A DNA stretch of 20,000 nucleotides from an uncultured virus (IMG/VR IMGVR_UViG_3300042321_002025) (lineage: Duplodnaviria > Heunggongvirae > Uroviricota > Caudoviricetes). Below are positions 3,036 to 15,824 of the stretch, in pieces; the stretch's first letter is position 1; each line of letters opens with the position of its first letter. The notes beneath the pieces were generated by a model, which worked only from the letters and a program-made list of their open reading frames with translations, had not been told where the DNA came from and ran no database searches. Both the position numbers and the translations under genes were made by a program. Where the stretch lies: the IMG/VR virus record IMGVR_UViG_3300042321_002025; one strand, given 5' to 3'.

Positions 3036-3923
3036 ATGAGTTCATTTGCGAACCTCAAACGCCAATCTGGCAACCTCGATAAGTTATCTAAAGCAATCGA
3101 GGCACTCAATACCTCATCCGAGGGTAACGAAAAATCCGATAATTTCTGGCGACCAGAAGTAGACAAAGCTGGCAACGGCATGGCTACGATTCGTTTTCTA
3201 CCAGCACCTGCTGTAGATGGCGATGATGCATTACCATGGGTCAAAGTATTCTCACATGGATTTCAAGGTCCTGGTGGTTGGTTAATTGATAACTGTTTAA
3301 CCACCAAAAATCAACAATGTCCTGTGTGTGAACACAATTCTGCATTGTGGAATTCTGGTATCGAAGCGAATAAAGATATTGTTCGTAAACAAAAACGTAA
3401 ACTAAATTACATTGCCAACGTTTATATTGTGTCCGACCCAAAACATCCTGAGAATGAAGGTCAGGTTAAATTGTTTAAGTTTGGTAAGAAAATCTTTGAT
3501 AAGATTACTGAAGCGATGAATCCTCAGTTTGAAGATGAAACAGCAGTCAATCCATTTGATTTATGGAAAGGTGCCAACTTCAAATTAAAGATTCGTAAGG
3601 TTGAAGGTTATCAGAACTATGACAAGTCTGAATTTGAATCATCATCTCCATTGTTGAGTGATGATGATGAATTGGAAAAGATTTGGAAGTCAGAGTTCTC
3701 TTTGTCTGAGATGACTTCTGATAAAGAATTCAAGTCATATGATGTTCTGAAACAACGCCTTGATAAAGTTCTAGGTCTCAATGGTGAAGCACCAAAGACA
3801 ACCGTAGAACAAACCAAAGCGAAGAACTTTGACGCCAAAACTAAATCTAATGATTCTCCTTTTAAAGATGAATCGGAAGATGATGATATGGCATATTTCA
3901 GCAAGTTAGCTGAAGAAGATTAA
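3036..3923 (+). CDS. gp32: single-stranded DNA-binding protein gp32
   Basis: DKAGNGMATIRFLPA, Zn ligands HGF...NC...CPVCE, FKFGKKIFDKI, ANFKLKIRKVEGYQNYDKSEF, acidic tail; SD AAAGGA. Confidence 0.97.
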   Translation: MSSFANLKRQSGNLDKLSKAIEALNTSSEGNEKSDNFWRPEVDKAGNGMATIRFLPAPAVDGDDALPWVKVFSHGFQGPGGWLIDNCLTTKNQQCPVCEHNSALWNSGIEANKDIVRKQKRKLNYIANVYIVSDPKHPENEGQVKLFKFGKKIFDKITEAMNPQFEDETAVNPFDLWKGANFKLKIRKVEGYQNYDKSEFESSSPLLSDDDELEKIWKSEFSLSEMTSDKEFKSYDVLKQRLDKVLGLNGEAPKTTVEQTKAKNFDAKTKSNDSPFKDESEDDDMAYFSKLAEED

Positions 3924-3991: not shown

Positions 3992-5362
3992 TTATACGAC
4001 TCTGGTGCTGTATAATATCATTCTTTGAAATGTTTCTTCCATATTCCTTACTGAAGGAATCTCGGTAACACTTTGAGATGGTTGATTTTGTGCATTGATA
4101 TTTGTTGTATTGATTGTTTCATTAGCCGAAGTTGAATCCGTTGGTAAATTCATTTCTAAATTCTCATTAGTTGCTGGCATTACGGCTGCTGATGCAGGCG
4201 CCGAAGGCATTGGTGTGGCCGTGTCGGAAGATTCTGCTGAAGCCGTTGGTGTCGCTGTGGGTCCTGAATCAGCCTTTGGTGTCGCTGTGGGTCCTGAATC
4301 AGCCTTTGGTGTCGCTGTGGGTCCTGAATCAGCCTTTGGTGTCGCTGTGGGTCCTGAATCAGCCTTTGGTGTTGCTGATGTTGGTACCGTAGCCGGTTTG
4401 CCAAGTAACTTATCTCTTTCAATTTTATAATCTTGAACTGCTCGTGCAGCTTCTGGACCTCTCTCTGCATATCCTTTTAATTGTGCATCATTTAATTTTT
4501 CACTTTCATTATAGTTCTTTTCAAAATTGGCAATTTCAGCTTTTGTTTTTTCATATTCAGGAAGTTTTCTAATACGGTCTTCCTCATCTTTAACACCGGC
4601 AAGGCCACCAACTGATTCTGCTTGTTTTAAGGCCAAATTAAAAGGTGAGTTTGGATCTTTATCGTAACTGGATTCATCAGTCAAAACTTTATACATGAAA
4701 TAAGCAATACCAGCTGCAGCTGCTCCGCCTAATAAAACTCCACCAGCACCAGTAACAGCGGCTGTTGCTAAACTTCCCAATCCTCTAATTGCTAATTTAC
4801 CAAGGTCTTTTAATCCAAACATATCCAAGATATTATCAAATATTGAAACATCTGGTTCTTCTTTCTTTGTTGCCGTTTCTTCTTTTGTTGTTTTATATTT
4901 TAAAGCCTCAAGCAATTCTTTATGCCGTTGTTTAGCTTTTAATTCCCTTTCAAATATTTCTTCTTCTGTTGGTGATAGATTTTTAAGTGAGTGTCGAGAA
5001 TCTTCTAACAAAAGATAAATCTCATTCAGCATCTCTAACATACCTTCTTCATTTTCACGAGTGGGTTTTATCTTTGATGCTGTATCCATTTTACCTTGTT
5101 TACCGGTAAAATATTTCATATCCTTTTCACTTCTACCCATCAATCTACCAACAAGAGCAGGAGCTAAATTTGAACCACCAGTCATAAATTTAGCAATGTT
5201 CATTGGATCAAACTTTTTCTTTAAGTTTGTCATTCTTGCTTGGCTGCCTTCTGAAACGGATTTAGAAATGGATTTACCAAAAGATTCTCCACCGACCATT
5301 TTCTCAGAGATTCTATCTGATAATGTTTTTTTTCTTATTCTATCGGCTTGTTCGTAGTTCAT
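3992..5362 (-). CDS. tape-measure-like / baseplate hub virion protein, paralog B (456 aa)
   Basis: Lies downstream of gp26-gp51, where T4 gp29-type genes are expected; charged helical N-half, Gly/Ala hydrophobic segment (LGSLATAAVTGAGGVLLGGAAAAGIAYFMY), Pro/Thr repeats; N-terminus paralogous to 5365..7008. Confidence 0.55.
   Translation of the reverse strand: MNYEQADRIRKKTLSDRISEKMVGGESFGKSISKSVSEGSQARMTNLKKKFDPMNIAKFMTGGSNLAPALVGRLMGRSEKDMKYFTGKQGKMDTASKIKPTRENEEGMLEMLNEIYLLLEDSRHSLKNLSPTEEEIFERELKAKQRHKELLEALKYKTTKEETATKKEEPDVSIFDNILDMFGLKDLGKLAIRGLGSLATAAVTGAGGVLLGGAAAAGIAYFMYKVLTDESSYDKDPNSPFNLALKQAESVGGLAGVKDEEDRIRKLPEYEKTKAEIANFEKNYNESEKLNDAQLKGYAERGPEAARAVQDYKIERDKLLGKPATVPTSATPKADSGPTATPKADSGPTATPKADSGPTATPKADSGPTATPTASAESSDTATPMPSAPASAAVMPATNENLEMNLPTDSTSANETINTTNINAQNQPSQSVTEIPSVRNMEETFQRMILYSTRVV
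4246..4372. repeat. perfect 30-bp tandem repeat, about 4.2 copies, encoding (TPKADSGPTA)n on the minus strand
   Basis: GTCGCTGTGGGTCCTGAATCAGCCTTTGGT at 4251, 4281, 4311 and 4341, identical with no spacers. Confidence 0.97.
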
Positions 5363-5364
5363 TC

Positions 5365-7008
5365 TTAACCTTTACTCTTTTCAAGAATTGCTGGCCTGTC
5401 ATTCTCTTTTTGTTTTTTATTTGTTTGTTGTGTATTATTTGTTTGATTAACATTGGTGGTATTTACAATGTTTGCATTCTTATCTGATTCAGTTTGTTTC
5501 AAATCTTTATTTTCAACAGAAGCTGCGTTAATTTGATTACCGGTGTTTAAACCTTGTGATTCAAATTCTAAAGCCAATTCCGCTCGTTTGGTAGCTTTTT
5601 CACCTGTAGGATCAGAAAAACCAACGGCTTTATTTACTAATGATATATTTTCAAGAGATTTTGGATCTCCTTTAGTTAAATATGATTTATAATTTAAAAA
5701 GAACCAAGGTATAGATTTTGCAGCAACTTCAGGACTATTAAGTAAATCTGGATTAGAAATTAAATCCATTTTAAGATAATCACCTAAAGATTTATATGCA
5801 TTTTTTCCTGTAATTTGTAAAAAACCTCGGCCTCTATATTTCCACCCGTCACCTGGTTGAGAATTACCATCTGTTTTTGCATATACATGATTTGCTAGTG
5901 CTTCTGGATTTTTAACAAATTGTTGAGCAAATTCTTCACTAGGTATTCTATTTTTACCAAAAGTATTTTGAATTGCTTTTGCGGAAGAATAATTTAAATT
6001 TTCACTTTTTGCCACGAAATTAGATTCTGATTTTACTTGTGCCAATACATTTGCTTGTGCTTTAGAAGAAAGGCCAGCAGCAGCCAATGAAGAAATGACG
6101 ATTGCTGCAGACCCACCTAGTTTACCTGCCGCACCACCAACTATTGGAGGTTTAGCAGTTGGTGTTGCTGTTGGTGGTTTTACTTCTGGTTTTGGTGCAG
6201 GTGCCGTAGTTGACGGCTTAACTTCAGGCTTGGGAGCAGGCGCTGCCGAGGGTGGCTTTACTTCTGGTTTTGGTGCAGGTGCGGCCGTGGGTTTTTCTGC
6301 TTCTTTAGCAGGAGGCTTTGGTGCTTCTTTAACTGGTGGCTTTGGTGCTTCTTTAGTAGGAGGCTTTGGTGCTTCTTTAGCAGGTTCTTTTGGTGCTTCT
6401 TTAGCAGGTTTTTTACCTTTGCCTTTACCTTTACCTGGTGGTGTAGGTTTTGTTGGTGCACCAGGTTTTTCTTTTACTTCTTCTTTCTTTTTTCTTTTCT
6501 TTTTATCTTCTTCTTCTTTTTTCTTTCTGACCGTCAAAGCTGCAATGATGGCTTTATTTCTTTGTGTTTCTCTTTCCTCATTTGCATCATCTTCATTTCT
6601 TCTGGCTTTGGCCAATGACTTTCGAGTTTCTTCAGCCATTTTTAATTCTTCATAAATCATTCCCAATACTTTAGTTGCTTCACCACCTTCTTCTAATGCA
6701 CCACCAGTTTCAAAATTAACTCCTCGTGCAGAAGGTCTTTTTCTTGGTTTGGCAAAATGTTCTATTGTGGATTGTTTACGACCCATTAAACGGCCGAGAA
6801 GTGCTGGTGCTAGATTAGAACCGCCAGTAAGTTTCTTGGCAATATTGAGTGGGTCGAACTTTTCTTGAATGCCAGTGAATGTGGCTTTGGTTCTATCGGA
6901 TATAGCAGAACCAAAAGACGAACCAATGCCTTGACCTTCAACCAAATTGTCGGTGATGAGGCCTGCTAGTCCTTTTTTTCGTATGCCTTCAGCTTTGCCG
7001 TATTCCAT
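5365..7008 (-). CDS. tape-measure-like virion protein with glycoside hydrolase family 19 (lysozyme/chitinase-like) domain, paralog A (547 aa)
   Basis: GH19 motifs LAQVKSES, ENLNYS, PEALANHVY, GDGWKYRGRGFLQITGKNAY, NPDLL, WFF; long Pro/Lys/Ala linker. The GH19 call is firm; the tape-measure role is inferred. Confidence 0.8.
   Translation of the reverse strand: MEYGKAEGIRKKGLAGLITDNLVEGQGIGSSFGSAISDRTKATFTGIQEKFDPLNIAKKLTGGSNLAPALLGRLMGRKQSTIEHFAKPRKRPSARGVNFETGGALEEGGEATKVLGMIYEELKMAEETRKSLAKARRNEDDANEERETQRNKAIIAALTVRKKKEEEDKKKRKKKEEVKEKPGAPTKPTPPGKGKGKGKKPAKEAPKEPAKEAPKPPTKEAPKPPVKEAPKPPAKEAEKPTAAPAPKPEVKPPSAAPAPKPEVKPSTTAPAPKPEVKPPTATPTAKPPIVGGAAGKLGGSAAIVISSLAAAGLSSKAQANVLAQVKSESNFVAKSENLNYSSAKAIQNTFGKNRIPSEEFAQQFVKNPEALANHVYAKTDGNSQPGDGWKYRGRGFLQITGKNAYKSLGDYLKMDLISNPDLLNSPEVAAKSIPWFFLNYKSYLTKGDPKSLENISLVNKAVGFSDPTGEKATKRAELALEFESQGLNTGNQINAASVENKDLKQTESDKNANIVNTTNVNQTNNTQQTNKKQKENDRPAILEKSKG
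6170..6410. repeat. degenerate coding repeats: 24-bp (KEAPKPPx, about 5 copies) and 39-bp (xAPAPKPEVKPxx, 3 copies)
   Basis: Seen in the translation and as recurring GGTGCTTCTTTA and TTTACTTCTGGTTTTGGTGCAGGTGC; synonymous differences between copies. Confidence 0.85.
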
Positions 7009-7206
7009 TTACTTTTTTCTTTGTCTTTCCCGTATCTTTTGGTTTTCTTCTTCAATATACGCAATCAACATAGAAACGTAAATGTCCCGCTCCCAAGGCA
7101 TCATATTTTCAAGCTCTGACAAACTATACTTATGGTGATGTATCAACGCAAAGTTTGTCTTATAGTAATTCTTTAAATTGTCATGACGAAATATTAAACG
7201 AAAAAA
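7009..7206 (-). CDS. gp51: gp51-like baseplate hub/tail assembly chaperone frame, missing from the ORF track; no ATG at its conserved 5' end
   Basis: Reads FFRLIFRHDNLKNYYKTNFALIHHHKYSLSELENMMPWERDIYVSMLIAYIEEENQKIRERQRKK*, matching the NYYKTNFAL..HHKYSL.E.ENMMPWER signature of the short gp51 of cyanophage-type T4-likes. Confidence 0.85.
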   Translation of the reverse strand, partial: FFRLIFRHDNLKNYYKTNFALIHHHKYSLSELENMMPWERDIYVSMLIAYIEEENQKIRERQRKK

Positions 7207-7919
7207 CTTTCAAGTCCTTCTACTTCAATTTTGTGGTCAAAACCACATTTGTTACATTTAATATCTAATGTTTCTTTTAGTTTTGGTAAATTATTAAAAA
7301 AGTTTTCTATCTTACCAAATTGTTCTTGGTTTAAACCTTCAACAAACTCCATTAATTCTTCTGGTGTTGATTCAGTTGCGTAGTAAAATTGTTCACCATC
7401 ATAAATGTATTCAATACTCTGTGCAATCATATGAAAGGTGACATCATTAATATTTTCATATTGCAAAGAATCTTTAACAATACCAAACTCTGGATACTTT
7501 AACTTAATTGAAATGTTTGATGTGAGATTAATCTCAGCCGAAACATCTTCATTCATTTGTACCTGAATTTGAGTTAAATCAACTTCTTTCTCCATAATAT
7601 TACCACATTCAACATCGTCAACCACATTATTACAACGATACCGTGATTCAACTATCTCACCAACTGATTTGGCACGAAGATTGACGAAGTAATATTCAAC
7701 ATCAATGATGGGCAACTTCTCTATGTTCACACCTTCAGTAAGTGTGCAGTTATACAAAATGTCTTTAATGTTCTGTTGAATGGTAGACGATTCAGACGAT
7801 TCAATCGCCATTAATAGATTTCTTTGTTCTTTAACAAGAAACGGTCTATATTTAATTTTAGTTTTTGAAACCGGCAACTCAATTTCATATGTCGGCACGT
7901 CAAGTTTTGGTAAAGCCAT
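7194..7919 (-). CDS. gp26: baseplate hub subunit/assembly chaperone gp26
   Basis: MALPKLDVPTYEIELPVS, YRPFLVKE, LRAKSVGE, LKYP, FFNNLPKL, C-x2-C, GLESFF; SD AGGAG. Confidence 0.92.
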   Translation of the reverse strand: MALPKLDVPTYEIELPVSKTKIKYRPFLVKEQRNLLMAIESSESSTIQQNIKDILYNCTLTEGVNIEKLPIIDVEYYFVNLRAKSVGEIVESRYRCNNVVDDVECGNIMEKEVDLTQIQVQMNEDVSAEINLTSNISIKLKYPEFGIVKDSLQYENINDVTFHMIAQSIEYIYDGEQFYYATESTPEELMEFVEGLNQEQFGKIENFFNNLPKLKETLDIKCNKCGFDHKIEVEGLESFFV

Positions 7920-9337: not shown

Positions 9338-9739
9338 ATGAGTATTTATAAGCTCACCAAAGAAGAACAAAGAATAGTAGATATTAATCTTTGTAGACAT
9401 TTCAACATAGAATATACACCAAGAGAATATGAGGACGTCTGCTTTGAATATAACCACAACGGTTGGGGTGGTGCAACTATGGGTACCACAGGTTACAAAT
9501 ACACAGAACAACAAAGAAAGAATATAAGCAATAGTTTAAAAGGTAAATGCAAAGGTTTTTCTGGAAAACATACTCTAGAAACAAAAAAGAAAATATCTTT
9601 AAAACAAACTGGTAAGAAAGCTTCCGAAGAAACAAAACTAAAGATGTCTAAAACACGAAAAGGAAAAGGACATTCAGAAGAAACTAAGCAAAAAATGCGA
9701 GAATTGGCTTTAATTAGGGAAGCACTAAAAAGACGGTAG
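9338..9739 (+). CDS. NUMOD3-repeat DNA-binding protein, homing-endonuclease-related, no recognisable nuclease domain
   Basis: Four NUMOD3-like units (GYKYTEQQRKNIS, GKHTLETKKKIS, GKKASEETKLKMS, GHSEETKQKMR); no GIY-YIG or HNH motif. Confidence 0.8.
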   Translation: MSIYKLTKEEQRIVDINLCRHFNIEYTPREYEDVCFEYNHNGWGGATMGTTGYKYTEQQRKNISNSLKGKCKGFSGKHTLETKKKISLKQTGKKASEETKLKMSKTRKGKGHSEETKQKMRELALIREALKRR

Positions 9740-11749: not shown

Positions 11750-13132
11750 ATGGCTGAAATTGACCAAAATATTTACACCGATGTAGAAAATCCTGGTGCG
11801 TATTATCCGCAAGATTATTCTTTAGAATCTATTAATTTTTTAACAGGTTCTGGCCAACGATTTGAAATGAAAAAGTTGTTAATAGAATTATCATATTATG
11901 AAGATATCTACAGTTTTTCTGTGTCTGGTTATGTTACGATTGTAGATGCTCAAGGATATATTGAGCTGTTGGATTTGACAGGAAATGAATTTGTTGAAAT
12001 AATCTTTGCAAAATCTAAAAATGCTTCAAATACAAATAAACAAGTATATCGAGTATACAAAATAGGAGATAGAAAACCTGTTGGTAACTTAAACTCTGAA
12101 TATTATACTTTTTACTTTTGCTCGGAAGAATTATTATTATCAGAACAAACTAAGATTAGTAAGTCATACAAAGGTAAAGAAATTGATAAGGTTATTACTG
12201 ATATATTAGTTGACAAATTAAAAGTAAAAAAAGAGAAAATACGAATTGAGAAAACAAATGGTATAAATGATTTTATTGTGCCTCGTTTCAAACCTTTTGA
12301 AGCAATCAGCTGGTTGTCAACATATGCAAGGCCTAAAGGTGCAGGTGAAATTGGTGCTGATATGTTATTTTTTGAAACAAAGGACGGGTTTAATTTCCGT
12401 TCTTTGCAATCAATGTTTAAAGATAACATTTATACCACATACAAATATCAACAACAAGGTATAGAAGATAAAACACAATCTTTTCAAGAAAAAACAATAA
12501 GTGTTTTAGACTATGAGTTTGTTAAAGTTTATGATATGATGAATGATGTTAATTCTGGCACATTGTCAAATCGACTTATATCTCTTGATACCATGTCTAG
12601 AACAAGTAAGGTTACAGATTTTAATTATATCAAATATAAATCTCAGGCAAAAACATTAAATCCTGGAAGCCCAACAAATACATTAAAAAATAGACTAGGA
12701 TTAACAAATTCTGATTCTTACAATGCCTCATTTAAGGTGGCTACTAGTAATGCTTTTCAACAAAATCAGCCATATATAAAGCAAGTTGTTGATGGTGTTG
12801 CCAAAAACATTGCAATTGAAACATATGTGCCAAATAGAACTGCTCAAATTTCATTGGCAAACTATACTGTGTTAAAGATTAAAATACCTGGTGATTCAGG
12901 AATTACTGTTGGTCGAACAATTAACTTTAATTTACTAACTTTAAAACCAACCACAGAAACAAAAAACTTGGACGAATTTTACTCTGGTAAATATTTGGTG
13001 ACTGCTGTAAGGCACATTATACAACCAACAGCATTTCAAACTGTCCTTGAAATTGCGAAAGATAGCACACCTAAACCATATACTGGTATCAACAATGATT
13101 CTGGTGTTTGGCAAAATACAGTTAAATTATAA
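11750..13132 (+). CDS. baseplate hub protein (gp27/Mu gp44-like)
   Basis: YYEDIY...VSG...IVD..G, FFET..GFNFRSL, IPGD..ITVG, YSGKYLVTAVRHII motifs; lies between gp53 and gp5. Confidence 0.75.
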   Translation: MAEIDQNIYTDVENPGAYYPQDYSLESINFLTGSGQRFEMKKLLIELSYYEDIYSFSVSGYVTIVDAQGYIELLDLTGNEFVEIIFAKSKNASNTNKQVYRVYKIGDRKPVGNLNSEYYTFYFCSEELLLSEQTKISKSYKGKEIDKVITDILVDKLKVKKEKIRIEKTNGINDFIVPRFKPFEAISWLSTYARPKGAGEIGADMLFFETKDGFNFRSLQSMFKDNIYTTYKYQQQGIEDKTQSFQEKTISVLDYEFVKVYDMMNDVNSGTLSNRLISLDTMSRTSKVTDFNYIKYKSQAKTLNPGSPTNTLKNRLGLTNSDSYNASFKVATSNAFQQNQPYIKQVVDGVAKNIAIETYVPNRTAQISLANYTVLKIKIPGDSGITVGRTINFNLLTLKPTTETKNLDEFYSGKYLVTAVRHIIQPTAFQTVLEIAKDSTPKPYTGINNDSGVWQNTVKL

Positions 13133-13422
13133 TGCAAAATTTTATAGGAAAAGATGGTTTTACTTGGTTCATCGGTGTAGTTGAAAACCGAGTAGATCCT
13201 TTGGGTATGGGAAGATGTCAACTTAGAATATTTGGTTGGCACACAGACAATATTAGTGAATTACCTACACAAGATTTACCATGGGCTCAACCAATGTATC
13301 CAATTAACAATTCAAAATCATTTTCAGCACCACTATTAGGTGATTGGGTGGTCGGTTTCTTTATGGACGGAGATTCAGGACAGGCACCAATTATGATGGG
13401 CGTTTTACCGGGAATAGCATAA
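13132..13422 (+). CDS. gp5: gp5 N-terminal OB-fold domain as a stand-alone gene
   Basis: WFIGVVENRVDPLGMGRCQLRIFGWH, LPTQDLPWA, GDWVVGFFMDG..Q.PI.MG.LPG; stops right after the OB fold. Confidence 0.9.
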   Translation: MQNFIGKDGFTWFIGVVENRVDPLGMGRCQLRIFGWHTDNISELPTQDLPWAQPMYPINNSKSFSAPLLGDWVVGFFMDGDSGQAPIMMGVLPGIA

Positions 13423-14241
13423 ATGGCAAATGAAATTCAATTACCTCCTTCTATTGTATCTGTAACTTTTGTTGGTGGCACAGCCGTTGAATCACCAGCA
13501 CCATCTCCAACTCAGGTTAATGATGGACAAACTAAAGGTAATCCTCAAGTACCTGCTGGTGCAAGAAGTATTGTTGCCAATACTAGTGTTGGTTTTGCCA
13601 ATGATAACTTGGCTCATGTGTGTGATTTTGTTACCGATATACAAAAAAATATTGAATTTAAAAAATATGCAAAGGCTACGGCCAAATATATTAGAGATGC
13701 AATTAGAGCAGTTTTAAGAGCATTGGGTTTTGCTGACCCTACAGGCGAAACTTCTTGGCTGGCAACCACACTAAAAGCCATTGCTAGAGAAGTTAATCGT
13801 ATCAATAAAGAAATTTTGCAACCAATTTTAGATTTTCAAAAATATGTTATTGCTTACATTGCCAAATTAAGAGCAATCATTGCTTGGATTTTAAGTTTAC
13901 CTGCAAAATTTTTAGCACTACTTCAAGATTGTTTGTCAAGATTAATTAAATTAATTGGTTCTGTTTTTTCTGATATTGGTGCTGGTCTTTCAGAAGGTTT
14001 TTCAGAAGGACCTAGTAATTATGATGACATTATTAAAGAAGCAAAAGCCTTAGCCGAGTCGGCAGCCAAAACAGTAACCGCAACAGTTGCTGTTGTAGCA
14101 GGTACAGTTAATATTGCTGGTGCGGCAACAGTTGGTCTTTTGATACCCACAAATCAAACAGAACTTGATGCAGCCAATGCAATTATTGCATCATACGAAG
14201 CTCCGGCCAAACCACCATCACAAAATAAATCGGCACCTTAA
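13423..14241 (+). CDS. uncharacterised helical protein at the position of the gp5 lysozyme domain
   Basis: Starts in frame immediately after the OB-fold stop; long amphipathic/hydrophobic helices; no lysozyme motif. Confidence 0.75.
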   Translation: MANEIQLPPSIVSVTFVGGTAVESPAPSPTQVNDGQTKGNPQVPAGARSIVANTSVGFANDNLAHVCDFVTDIQKNIEFKKYAKATAKYIRDAIRAVLRALGFADPTGETSWLATTLKAIAREVNRINKEILQPILDFQKYVIAYIAKLRAIIAWILSLPAKFLALLQDCLSRLIKLIGSVFSDIGAGLSEGFSEGPSNYDDIIKEAKALAESAAKTVTATVAVVAGTVNIAGAATVGLLIPTNQTELDAANAIIASYEAPAKPPSQNKSAP

Positions 14242-14243
14242 TT

Positions 14244-15017
14244 ATGGCAATATTACCACCATCACCTTCAGATAACTCTTGGACAGAACCAGAATCGGCT
14301 AGAAATACCGAAACTCCACCAGTATATCCATATAATAACATACAACAGACGGAATCTGGTCATTCCTTTGAGATGGACGACACTCCAACAAGAGAACGAG
14401 TTCGGTTACAGCACCGTATAGGTACTTTCTTGGAAATGCATCCTGATGGCGATGAGGTGCATAAGGTATATGGTACTGGATACGAGATTTACTTAAAAGG
14501 TAAAAATGTTCTAATCAAAGGTACCTGTAATATTACCATTGAGGGTGATGCCAATATGGAAGTTAAAGGTGACCACAATGTTCAGGTAGCAGGTGATTAC
14601 AATCTATTAGTTGGTGGTAAAATGAACACCAGAGTTGTAGGTGATATTTCTCAATCTAGTGATGGTGATATGTCAATTACTGCTAATGAGAACTTTGGTG
14701 GTGCAATCCGTATGGCTGCGTCTGACCATGTTTACATAGACTCTGATTTGGTAGTTGCTGGCTCTGCTTCGGCTGATTTAATTACTGCTGAAACACGAAT
14801 TAATGCTGGTACTGGATTGTATGCAGGTTTATTGGGTGTATATTCACAAGGACCAATTACTTCATTAACTTCAGTTGAAGCACCTTTGGGAACATTTGGT
14901 ATTATGAATGCTGTATTGATGTCTGATATTATTAACAAAGGCATCTATAACACCCATATACACAATTCACCAAAAGGACCAACCAGTCCGCCTTTGACAC
15001 CTTTCTTTGGAGTTTAG
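14244..15017 (+). CDS. gp5: gp5 C-terminal beta-helix spike with HxH apex
   Basis: YPYNN...TESGH..EMDDTP..ER....H..GT..E..PDG, VxG repeats at 8-residue spacing, terminal YNTHIH. Confidence 0.9.
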   Translation: MAILPPSPSDNSWTEPESARNTETPPVYPYNNIQQTESGHSFEMDDTPTRERVRLQHRIGTFLEMHPDGDEVHKVYGTGYEIYLKGKNVLIKGTCNITIEGDANMEVKGDHNVQVAGDYNLLVGGKMNTRVVGDISQSSDGDMSITANENFGGAIRMAASDHVYIDSDLVVAGSASADLITAETRINAGTGLYAGLLGVYSQGPITSLTSVEAPLGTFGIMNAVLMSDIINKGIYNTHIHNSPKGPTSPPLTPFFGV

Positions 15018-15020
15018 ATA

Positions 15021-15824
15021 ATGGCATTAGTTAATAACGCAACTGGAGTATATGCAACATTAGGTTATAATTTTAGTGACCCAAATGGTGATGTATTAAA
15101 TCTTTCTGCAAATACAGTTGCACATCTAAACTCTATGCCGGCGTTTATTGAAACTTGGCAGGCACAAGACATTGCAAATAACGCAGTTGGCGGATATTAT
15201 CAAAACCCCGTGGCTTCTAATACCGGTTCAATCATTACAATTTCACAAACCATGATAACTGTGGCAAATACTGGGGCCAGTCAAAACATTGCAAATTGTG
15301 ATTTGATTGTTACAGCTGCAAATACACTTGCGAATGTTGCAACTTCGTTTTTAGCACACACTAACAGAATATCAGGAGTAACACCCTTTGTTGGCCAAGA
15401 AGTTGAGAATCCATATTATGACACGGCCATGGGATTAGGTAAGACTGCCTTGTATATCACCAATCAAACTGACAATATAACCAATACTTCACCTATTTTA
15501 GGTAGCTTTACTAGTATACTGATTGGTCCTCAAGTAGGTTCAACAAATGTTACTTTGGCCAATAGTCTTGTAACTCTAACAAATGGAGTGACAGCCAACA
15601 ATTTGACAGAAGCACAAATATCACAGATTCTTTCTGATATATCAAATACCAACACACTTTTGATAACCAGACAAAATGCTGATGTAACCTACTATACTAA
15701 TTTGCGTAGTTTTGTAGACAAATACAATCAGGTGAAGAAATTTACCAATATGGGTGAAACGGAGACCTATTTGGTCAACAACTTTGTTGGTACAGACAAG
15801 ATTAAAGAAAGAATAAACTCATAA
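15021..15824 (+). CDS. hypothetical virion-associated protein (Asn/Thr/Ala-rich, 267 aa)
   Basis: Tightly packed ORF between gp5C and gp25 with SD GGAG; no family recognised. Confidence 0.75.
   Translation: MALVNNATGVYATLGYNFSDPNGDVLNLSANTVAHLNSMPAFIETWQAQDIANNAVGGYYQNPVASNTGSIITISQTMITVANTGASQNIANCDLIVTAANTLANVATSFLAHTNRISGVTPFVGQEVENPYYDTAMGLGKTALYITNQTDNITNTSPILGSFTSILIGPQVGSTNVTLANSLVTLTNGVTANNLTEAQISQILSDISNTNTLLITRQNADVTYYTNLRSFVDKYNQVKKFTNMGETETYLVNNFVGTDKIKERINS

Follow-up and report, generated by a model that had tools for sequence, protein, structure and literature searches.

Comparative support for a predicted -1 ribosomal frameshift between the gp26-like gene and the Gp51_C frame of a T4-like phage

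The gp26-like gene of an uncultured T4-like phage very probably gives rise to two tail assembly chaperones, one of 241 and one of 303 amino acids, the longer of which would be made by -1 ribosomal slippage on the heptamer U_UUU_UUC near the end of the gene. A first-pass annotation of the window (the whole stretch of 20,000 nucleotides that was analysed) had proposed such a frameshift, fusing gp26 to gp51. This proposal is well supported by the comparison with related loci, and the support comes from a constant frame offset, conservation of the heptamer at synonymous positions, the lack of a conserved start codon for the second frame and the predicted fold of the first domain.

Results

The locus and its reading frames

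The window belongs to a virus record of 72.5 kb, which has T4-like replication and baseplate genes. In this record, which is estimated to be 43% complete, there is a single gp26-like frame and a single Gp51_C frame, and no separate full-length gp51 gene was found. The features that matter for the argument are the following:

8661-7951, minus strand: tail-tube-family gene (phrog_45, E 3.6e-42; PF23849), upstream of gp26
7919-7194, minus strand: gp26-like gene, 241 aa, PF12322; candidate short form of the tail assembly chaperone (TAC-N)
7219-7215, minus strand: AAGGA, a Shine-Dalgarno-like candidate for a 5' stimulator, 9 nt before the P-site codon
7206-7200, minus strand: slippery heptamer U_UUU_UUC (T_TTT_TTC); predicted -1 shift site
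7209-7009, minus strand: Gp51_C frame (TAC-C), the -1 frame, 64 residues counted from the second Phe, without an early start codon
7008-5365, minus strand: 547-aa gene abutting the Gp51_C stop, PF00182 (GH19), E 1e-6; candidate tape measure
5362-3992, minus strand: 456-aa gene, paralogue of the 547-aa gene; candidate second tape-measure-like gene

Read on the minus strand, gp26 ends with GAA AGT TTT TTC GTT TAA, its stop codon being 7196-7194. The -1 frame is closed at its upstream end by a TGA (7212-7210), opens at 7209 and runs for 66 codons to the TAA at 7011-7009. Its earliest in-frame starts are TTG 7146, at codon 20 past the slip site, and ATG 7104, at codon 34. Normal reading of gp26 yields 241 aa and the computed gp26-Gp51_C fusion 303 aa. 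A re-reading of the strand returned every coordinate that the first-pass annotation had given for the heptamer, the stops, the frame ends and the starts, and the computed sizes agree with its 241-aa gp26 and fusion of about 303 aa. It had also placed the recognisable gp51 residues before any in-frame ATG and judged TTG 7146 to be too late as well; indeed, initiation at this first start would remove 20 codons, including the conserved His, Leu, Tyr-Tyr and Asn-Phe.

Both domains of the T4 gp26/gp51 family (PF12322; Gp51_C, PF28602) were matched by sequence. The Gp51_C frame matches phrog_634 (E 1.7e-29) and Atlas clusters named Gp51_C (score 0.96). Moreover, the two frames are consecutive on the phrog_150 profile, of which gp26 covers positions 5-232 and the Gp51_C frame positions 230-276 directly after.

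Conservation of the frame offset and of the heptamer

Viral contigs and annotated phages supplied the 258 loci of our first set of relatives; with the window added there were 259, of which 257 have a gp26 stop. A match to the Gp51_C profile was sought in the 300 bases behind that stop, and the matching frame lay at -1 in all 249 loci that had one. Of the other eight, three are contigs that are cut, three have an open -1 frame that stays below threshold, one is a T4-type phage and one is L248. A second, more diverse set of 80 loci was taken from genome bins by means of N-terminal gp26 motifs; here the offset was -1 in 77/77 loci with a Gp51_C match, the remaining three being cut.

The heptamer by itself is not beyond chance, since 42 in-frame X_XXY_YYZ motifs occur in the 5762 codons of the 23 ORFs of the window (T_TTT_TTC nowhere else among them). 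Its conservation among the relatives is beyond chance. At the aligned site T_TTT_TTN was found in 251 of 256 loci (TTC 198, TTA 28, TTT 24, TTG 1), the other five being four with G_ATT_TTC or A_CTT_TTC and L248, and in 77/77 loci of the second set. Among 58 representatives obtained by clustering at 80%, the Ser/Asn/Asp-Phe pair is encoded with T_TTT in 52 of 52 cases, compared with the 21.9 that codon use would predict; the representatives are kin, and such synonymous-site counts are therefore non-independent draws. The first Phe is TTT in 54/54, whereas seven other conserved Phe columns have TTT in 25/58 to 41/48.

The -1 frame is itself conserved from the slip site onwards, ahead of any start codon. 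The second codon in the zero frame varies (TTC, TTA, TTT, TTG), whereas the Phe at codon 1 of the -1 frame is constant (58/58). The same representatives have L/I/V across the gp26 stop (57/58), L/F/M at codon 5 (56/58), His at codon 7 (50/58) and Leu at codon 10 (53/58). By the position of the conserved His, or at it, a start codon has occurred in 22 of the 58 representatives of the first set and in 16/54 of the second, and a further count gave an early start in 9/25 representatives; the window has none. Thus the constant -1 relationship, the conservation of the heptamer at synonymous positions and the absence of a conserved gp51 start, to which the first-pass annotation had pointed as properties to be compared among relatives, were all found.

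Several loci deserve separate mention. In L248, a relative of Moby, the run has one T fewer (at about 1740-1760), gp26 reads on and the gp51-like frame is found at +1; the loss is either an assembly error or a mutant. Kuttervirus-like phages and two Vibrio phages (L084 at 3735-3747, L257, L251 and L252) have G_ATT_TTC or A_CTT_TTC at the slip site, which would let just one tRNA re-pair, and in these loci the -1 frame before gp5 is unannotated or truncated. In Moby (L083, 3732) and Vibrio phage XZ1 (L086, 3831) an ATG in the -1 frame shares bases with the gp26 stop, and T_TTT_TTC is still kept.

Relation to T4 gp26 and gp51 and predicted fold

A profile of 55 computed fusions aligned with positions 24-281 of the 296 of T4-type gp51 (E 2e-11) and crossed the junction gap-free, whereas its match to T4-type gp26 ended at 236 (E 4e-23). 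Because T4-type gp51 aligns gap-free across the junction, the predicted long form would correspond to a separate gene in T4-type phages. In their 2022 study, Vladimirov et al. are said to name 26 and 51 as the tail chaperone genes and to describe frameshifts in several T4-like groups; that naming fits the gap-free match of the fusion.

Residues 1-96 of gp26 are predicted to adopt the fold of a tail assembly chaperone: the best three of 48,161 chains for the predicted N-terminal fold were 3FGX, 3KLU and 2OB9, which are named as tail assembly chaperones (PMC9603447). The rest of gp26, residues 97-241, adds about 145 residues to this fold that the solved chaperones lack.

Possible stimulators of the shift

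No conserved 3' structure or hairpin downstream of the slip site was found among the relatives, and single sequences downstream of the site fold with an average z of -1.0. The upstream side is more suggestive. The AAGGA at 7219-7215 would form a 5-bp duplex of -5.4 kcal/mol, computed, like the other pairing energies, against the tail motif of 16S rRNA, and no downstream ATG is near enough for it to act in initiation. Four codons ahead of the site, a conserved Gly is GGA/GGG in 42/51 cases, compared with 127/439 elsewhere in the gene and 13/53 at another conserved Gly; the corresponding counts in the second set are 33/50 and 131/367 (elsewhere). Upstream anti-SD pairing in the first set amounts to -6.26 kcal/mol versus -4.80 (sd 0.21) in synonymous recodings, 0/500 of which were as strong, and the second set repeats this bias more weakly (-5.76 versus -4.59, sd 0.20; 0/500). 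Out of 54 segments along the gene, the three nearest the slip site stand out in this respect. The duplex ends 8-10 nt upstream of the site in 47 of the 58 representatives and 9 nt upstream in the phage studied here; 9-14 nt is the spacing stated for SD-stimulated -1 shifts in PMC5009743, and a general role of SD stimulators in frameshifting is described in PMC4066793.

As a statistical hint, this makes the upstream SD-like element a candidate stimulator. We give even chances to the more specific idea that the shift is driven by an internal SD-like element embedded in the codons for a conserved Glu-Gly, 8-10 nt ahead of U_UUU_UUN, and not by 3' RNA structure, and that this design is conserved across hundreds of aquatic T4-like phages. 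If true, it would constitute an SD-stimulated tail-chaperone frameshift in which the strength of the element sets the ratio of short to long form.

Neighbouring genes

The first-pass annotation had recognised a lambda-like gene order of tube-family gene, gp26, gp51 and tape-measure-like genes. The tube-family part holds (phrog_45), with the proviso that the gene may encode not the major tube protein but a gp54-like initiator of the tube, because the OLIVR6 gene at the same position is annotated as 'baseplate tail tube initiator'. The tape-measure label was not borne out by family searches, in which neither the 547-aa nor the 456-aa gene matched a tape-measure family and the latter matched no family at all; an Atlas TMP_2 row for the 547-aa gene had a score of 0.82 at rank 15. 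The downstream genes are nevertheless plausibly tape measure genes. The 547-aa protein consists of a conserved N-terminus, a Pro/Lys-rich linker and the GH19 domain, while its homologues swap cell-wall hydrolase domains (PF00182, PF00959, PF01464, PF21277), and a conserved N-terminus combined with a varying hydrolase domain fits a tape measure. The N-terminal 170 or so residues of the 456-aa and the 547-aa protein are 38% identical (E 1e-27). Both genes (3992-7008) carry Pro-rich repeats, and P-SSM5 also has two genes of similar size downstream of the chaperone locus.

Other features of the window

On the plus strand gp5 appears in pieces (13132-15017). A 96-aa ORF with the N-terminal OB-fold (13132-13422) is followed in the same frame, with a TAA and directly then an ATG, by a 272-aa ORF of no family (13423-14241); two bases on and in another frame, a 257-aa ORF (14244-15017) matches the C-terminal part of gp5. 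A lysozyme domain was not found in these three ORFs. A 133-aa ORF with NUMOD3 repeats (9338-9739, plus strand) resembles a homing endonuclease remnant; it lies on the strand opposite to its two neighbours, which are the genes for the DNA end protector and for head closure. The plus-strand ORFs 15021-15824, 741-1019 and 90-374 have no PHROG family at E 0.01.

Discussion

A model for the synthesis of the two chaperones

Judging from the sequence comparison, both forms would be made from one start codon, normal reading giving the short form of 241 aa. With tRNA-Phe on UUU and UUC, the ribosome would slip back one base in tandem at 7206-7200 and continue into the Gp51_C frame, giving the presumably rarer long form of 303 aa. 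The upstream AAGGA may aid the slip by pairing with the 16S rRNA of the elongating ribosome. By analogy with lambda G/GT we infer lambda-like roles for the two forms, in which the short form would coat the tape measure protein and the added domain would recruit the tube protein.

The same 303-aa protein would be obtained by ordinary translation if RNA polymerase added one U in the T6 run, as a single added T results in an identical frame and junction peptide. Slippage on T5C5 is mentioned in PMC5009743, and the longer run T_TTT_TTT does occur in 24/256 loci. Nevertheless, of 55 representatives 46 have a run of just 6 T and four have one of 4 T, and longer runs are avoided, as the second Phe codon is TTT in just 7/51 against a background of 68%. 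In addition, the run is always in X_XXY_YYZ phase and the upstream SD-like bias suggests an involvement of the ribosome, and we regard transcriptional slippage as very unlikely. Even harder to sustain is a small separate Gp51_C protein without any fusion, whose translation, coupled to the gp26 stop, would begin at TTG 7146, ATG 7104 or a non-standard codon. The public records of relatives do annotate two genes, as the first-pass annotation had said is usual, or miss the second one, and an ATG occurs 4-6 codons past the slip site in 19/58 representatives, many of them cyanophages, where coupled re-initiation may take place. However, in 41/58 representatives the position of this Met is occupied by Leu or Phe, the first start in the window would drop the 20 codons with their conserved residues, and SD pairing amounts to only -1.2 kcal/mol before TTG 7146 and -2.1 before ATG 7104 (several real starts of this phage are without SD). 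Such a protein would, moreover, leave the T_TTT conservation and the gap-free match to T4-type gp51 unexplained, and we consider its independent synthesis highly improbable.

A further alternative accepts the -1 frameshift and concerns its purpose, in that the pair would chaperone assembly of the baseplate hub alone and would not act as a G/GT-type tape measure chaperone. PMC3004832 lists T4 gp26 and gp51 as chaperones of hub assembly, residues 97-241 have no counterpart in the solved chaperones, and the gene behind the locus in Kuttervirus and the two Vibrio phages is gp5 and not a tape-measure-like gene. On the other hand, the best matches of the predicted N-terminal fold are three tail assembly chaperones, and PMC3004832 counts the tape measure of T4, gp29, among the components of the hub, so that the roles overlap. 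An exclusive role in the hub therefore seems unlikely to us, and -1 slippage that produces a short and a long tail assembly chaperone is the reading we prefer.

Implications and comparison with known systems

The idea of a frameshifting chaperone gene is already in print for T4-like phages, and the present locus is a well-supported new example, not a discovery. No paper devoted to this locus was found in our literature search. The upstream SD-like element may be the sole part that is new here, and with it the locus offers a compact predicted frameshift system with a candidate upstream stimulator. For annotation, the comparison implies that what is called 'gp51' in cyanophages and in other T4-like phages of aquatic habitats is probably not a gene of 45-60 aa but the end portion of a frameshift product. 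The locus also supports a reading in which T4 gene 26 encodes the short chaperone and gene 51 the long one.

Of the T4-type copies (in slur03, locus L085), gp26 corresponds to the short form and gp51, across the junction, to the computed long form. The T4-type phages, however, have two divergent genes without a frameshift, whereas here one gene would suffice by means of the predicted -1 shift. The slippery motif of phage lambda is G_GGA_AAG, whereas that of the present locus is U_UUU_UUC; the tail here is contractile and the short form is larger, by the residues beyond the chaperone fold. The two systems are alike in that lambda gpG and gpGT are a short and a long chaperone that a single gene yields through a -1 shift close to its 3' end (PMC5009743). 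The -1 signals of the dnaX and IS type, with their internal Shine-Dalgarno, likewise have an SD-like element upstream of the shift site, but the spacing of 9 nt is at the lower edge here, the element is putative and a 3' hairpin is not conserved. The closest precedent is the work of Vladimirov, Gautam and Davidson (Virology 2022), which, as far as the citing passages convey, concerns the same gene family and makes the same proposal: it is cited for polyT -1 signals in 'TAC-N genes of T4-like phages' (PMC12846349) and for T4-like phages that have the short form and the long fused form in separate genes (PMC10885494), and further in PMC12859696, PMC11526630 and PMC13222765.
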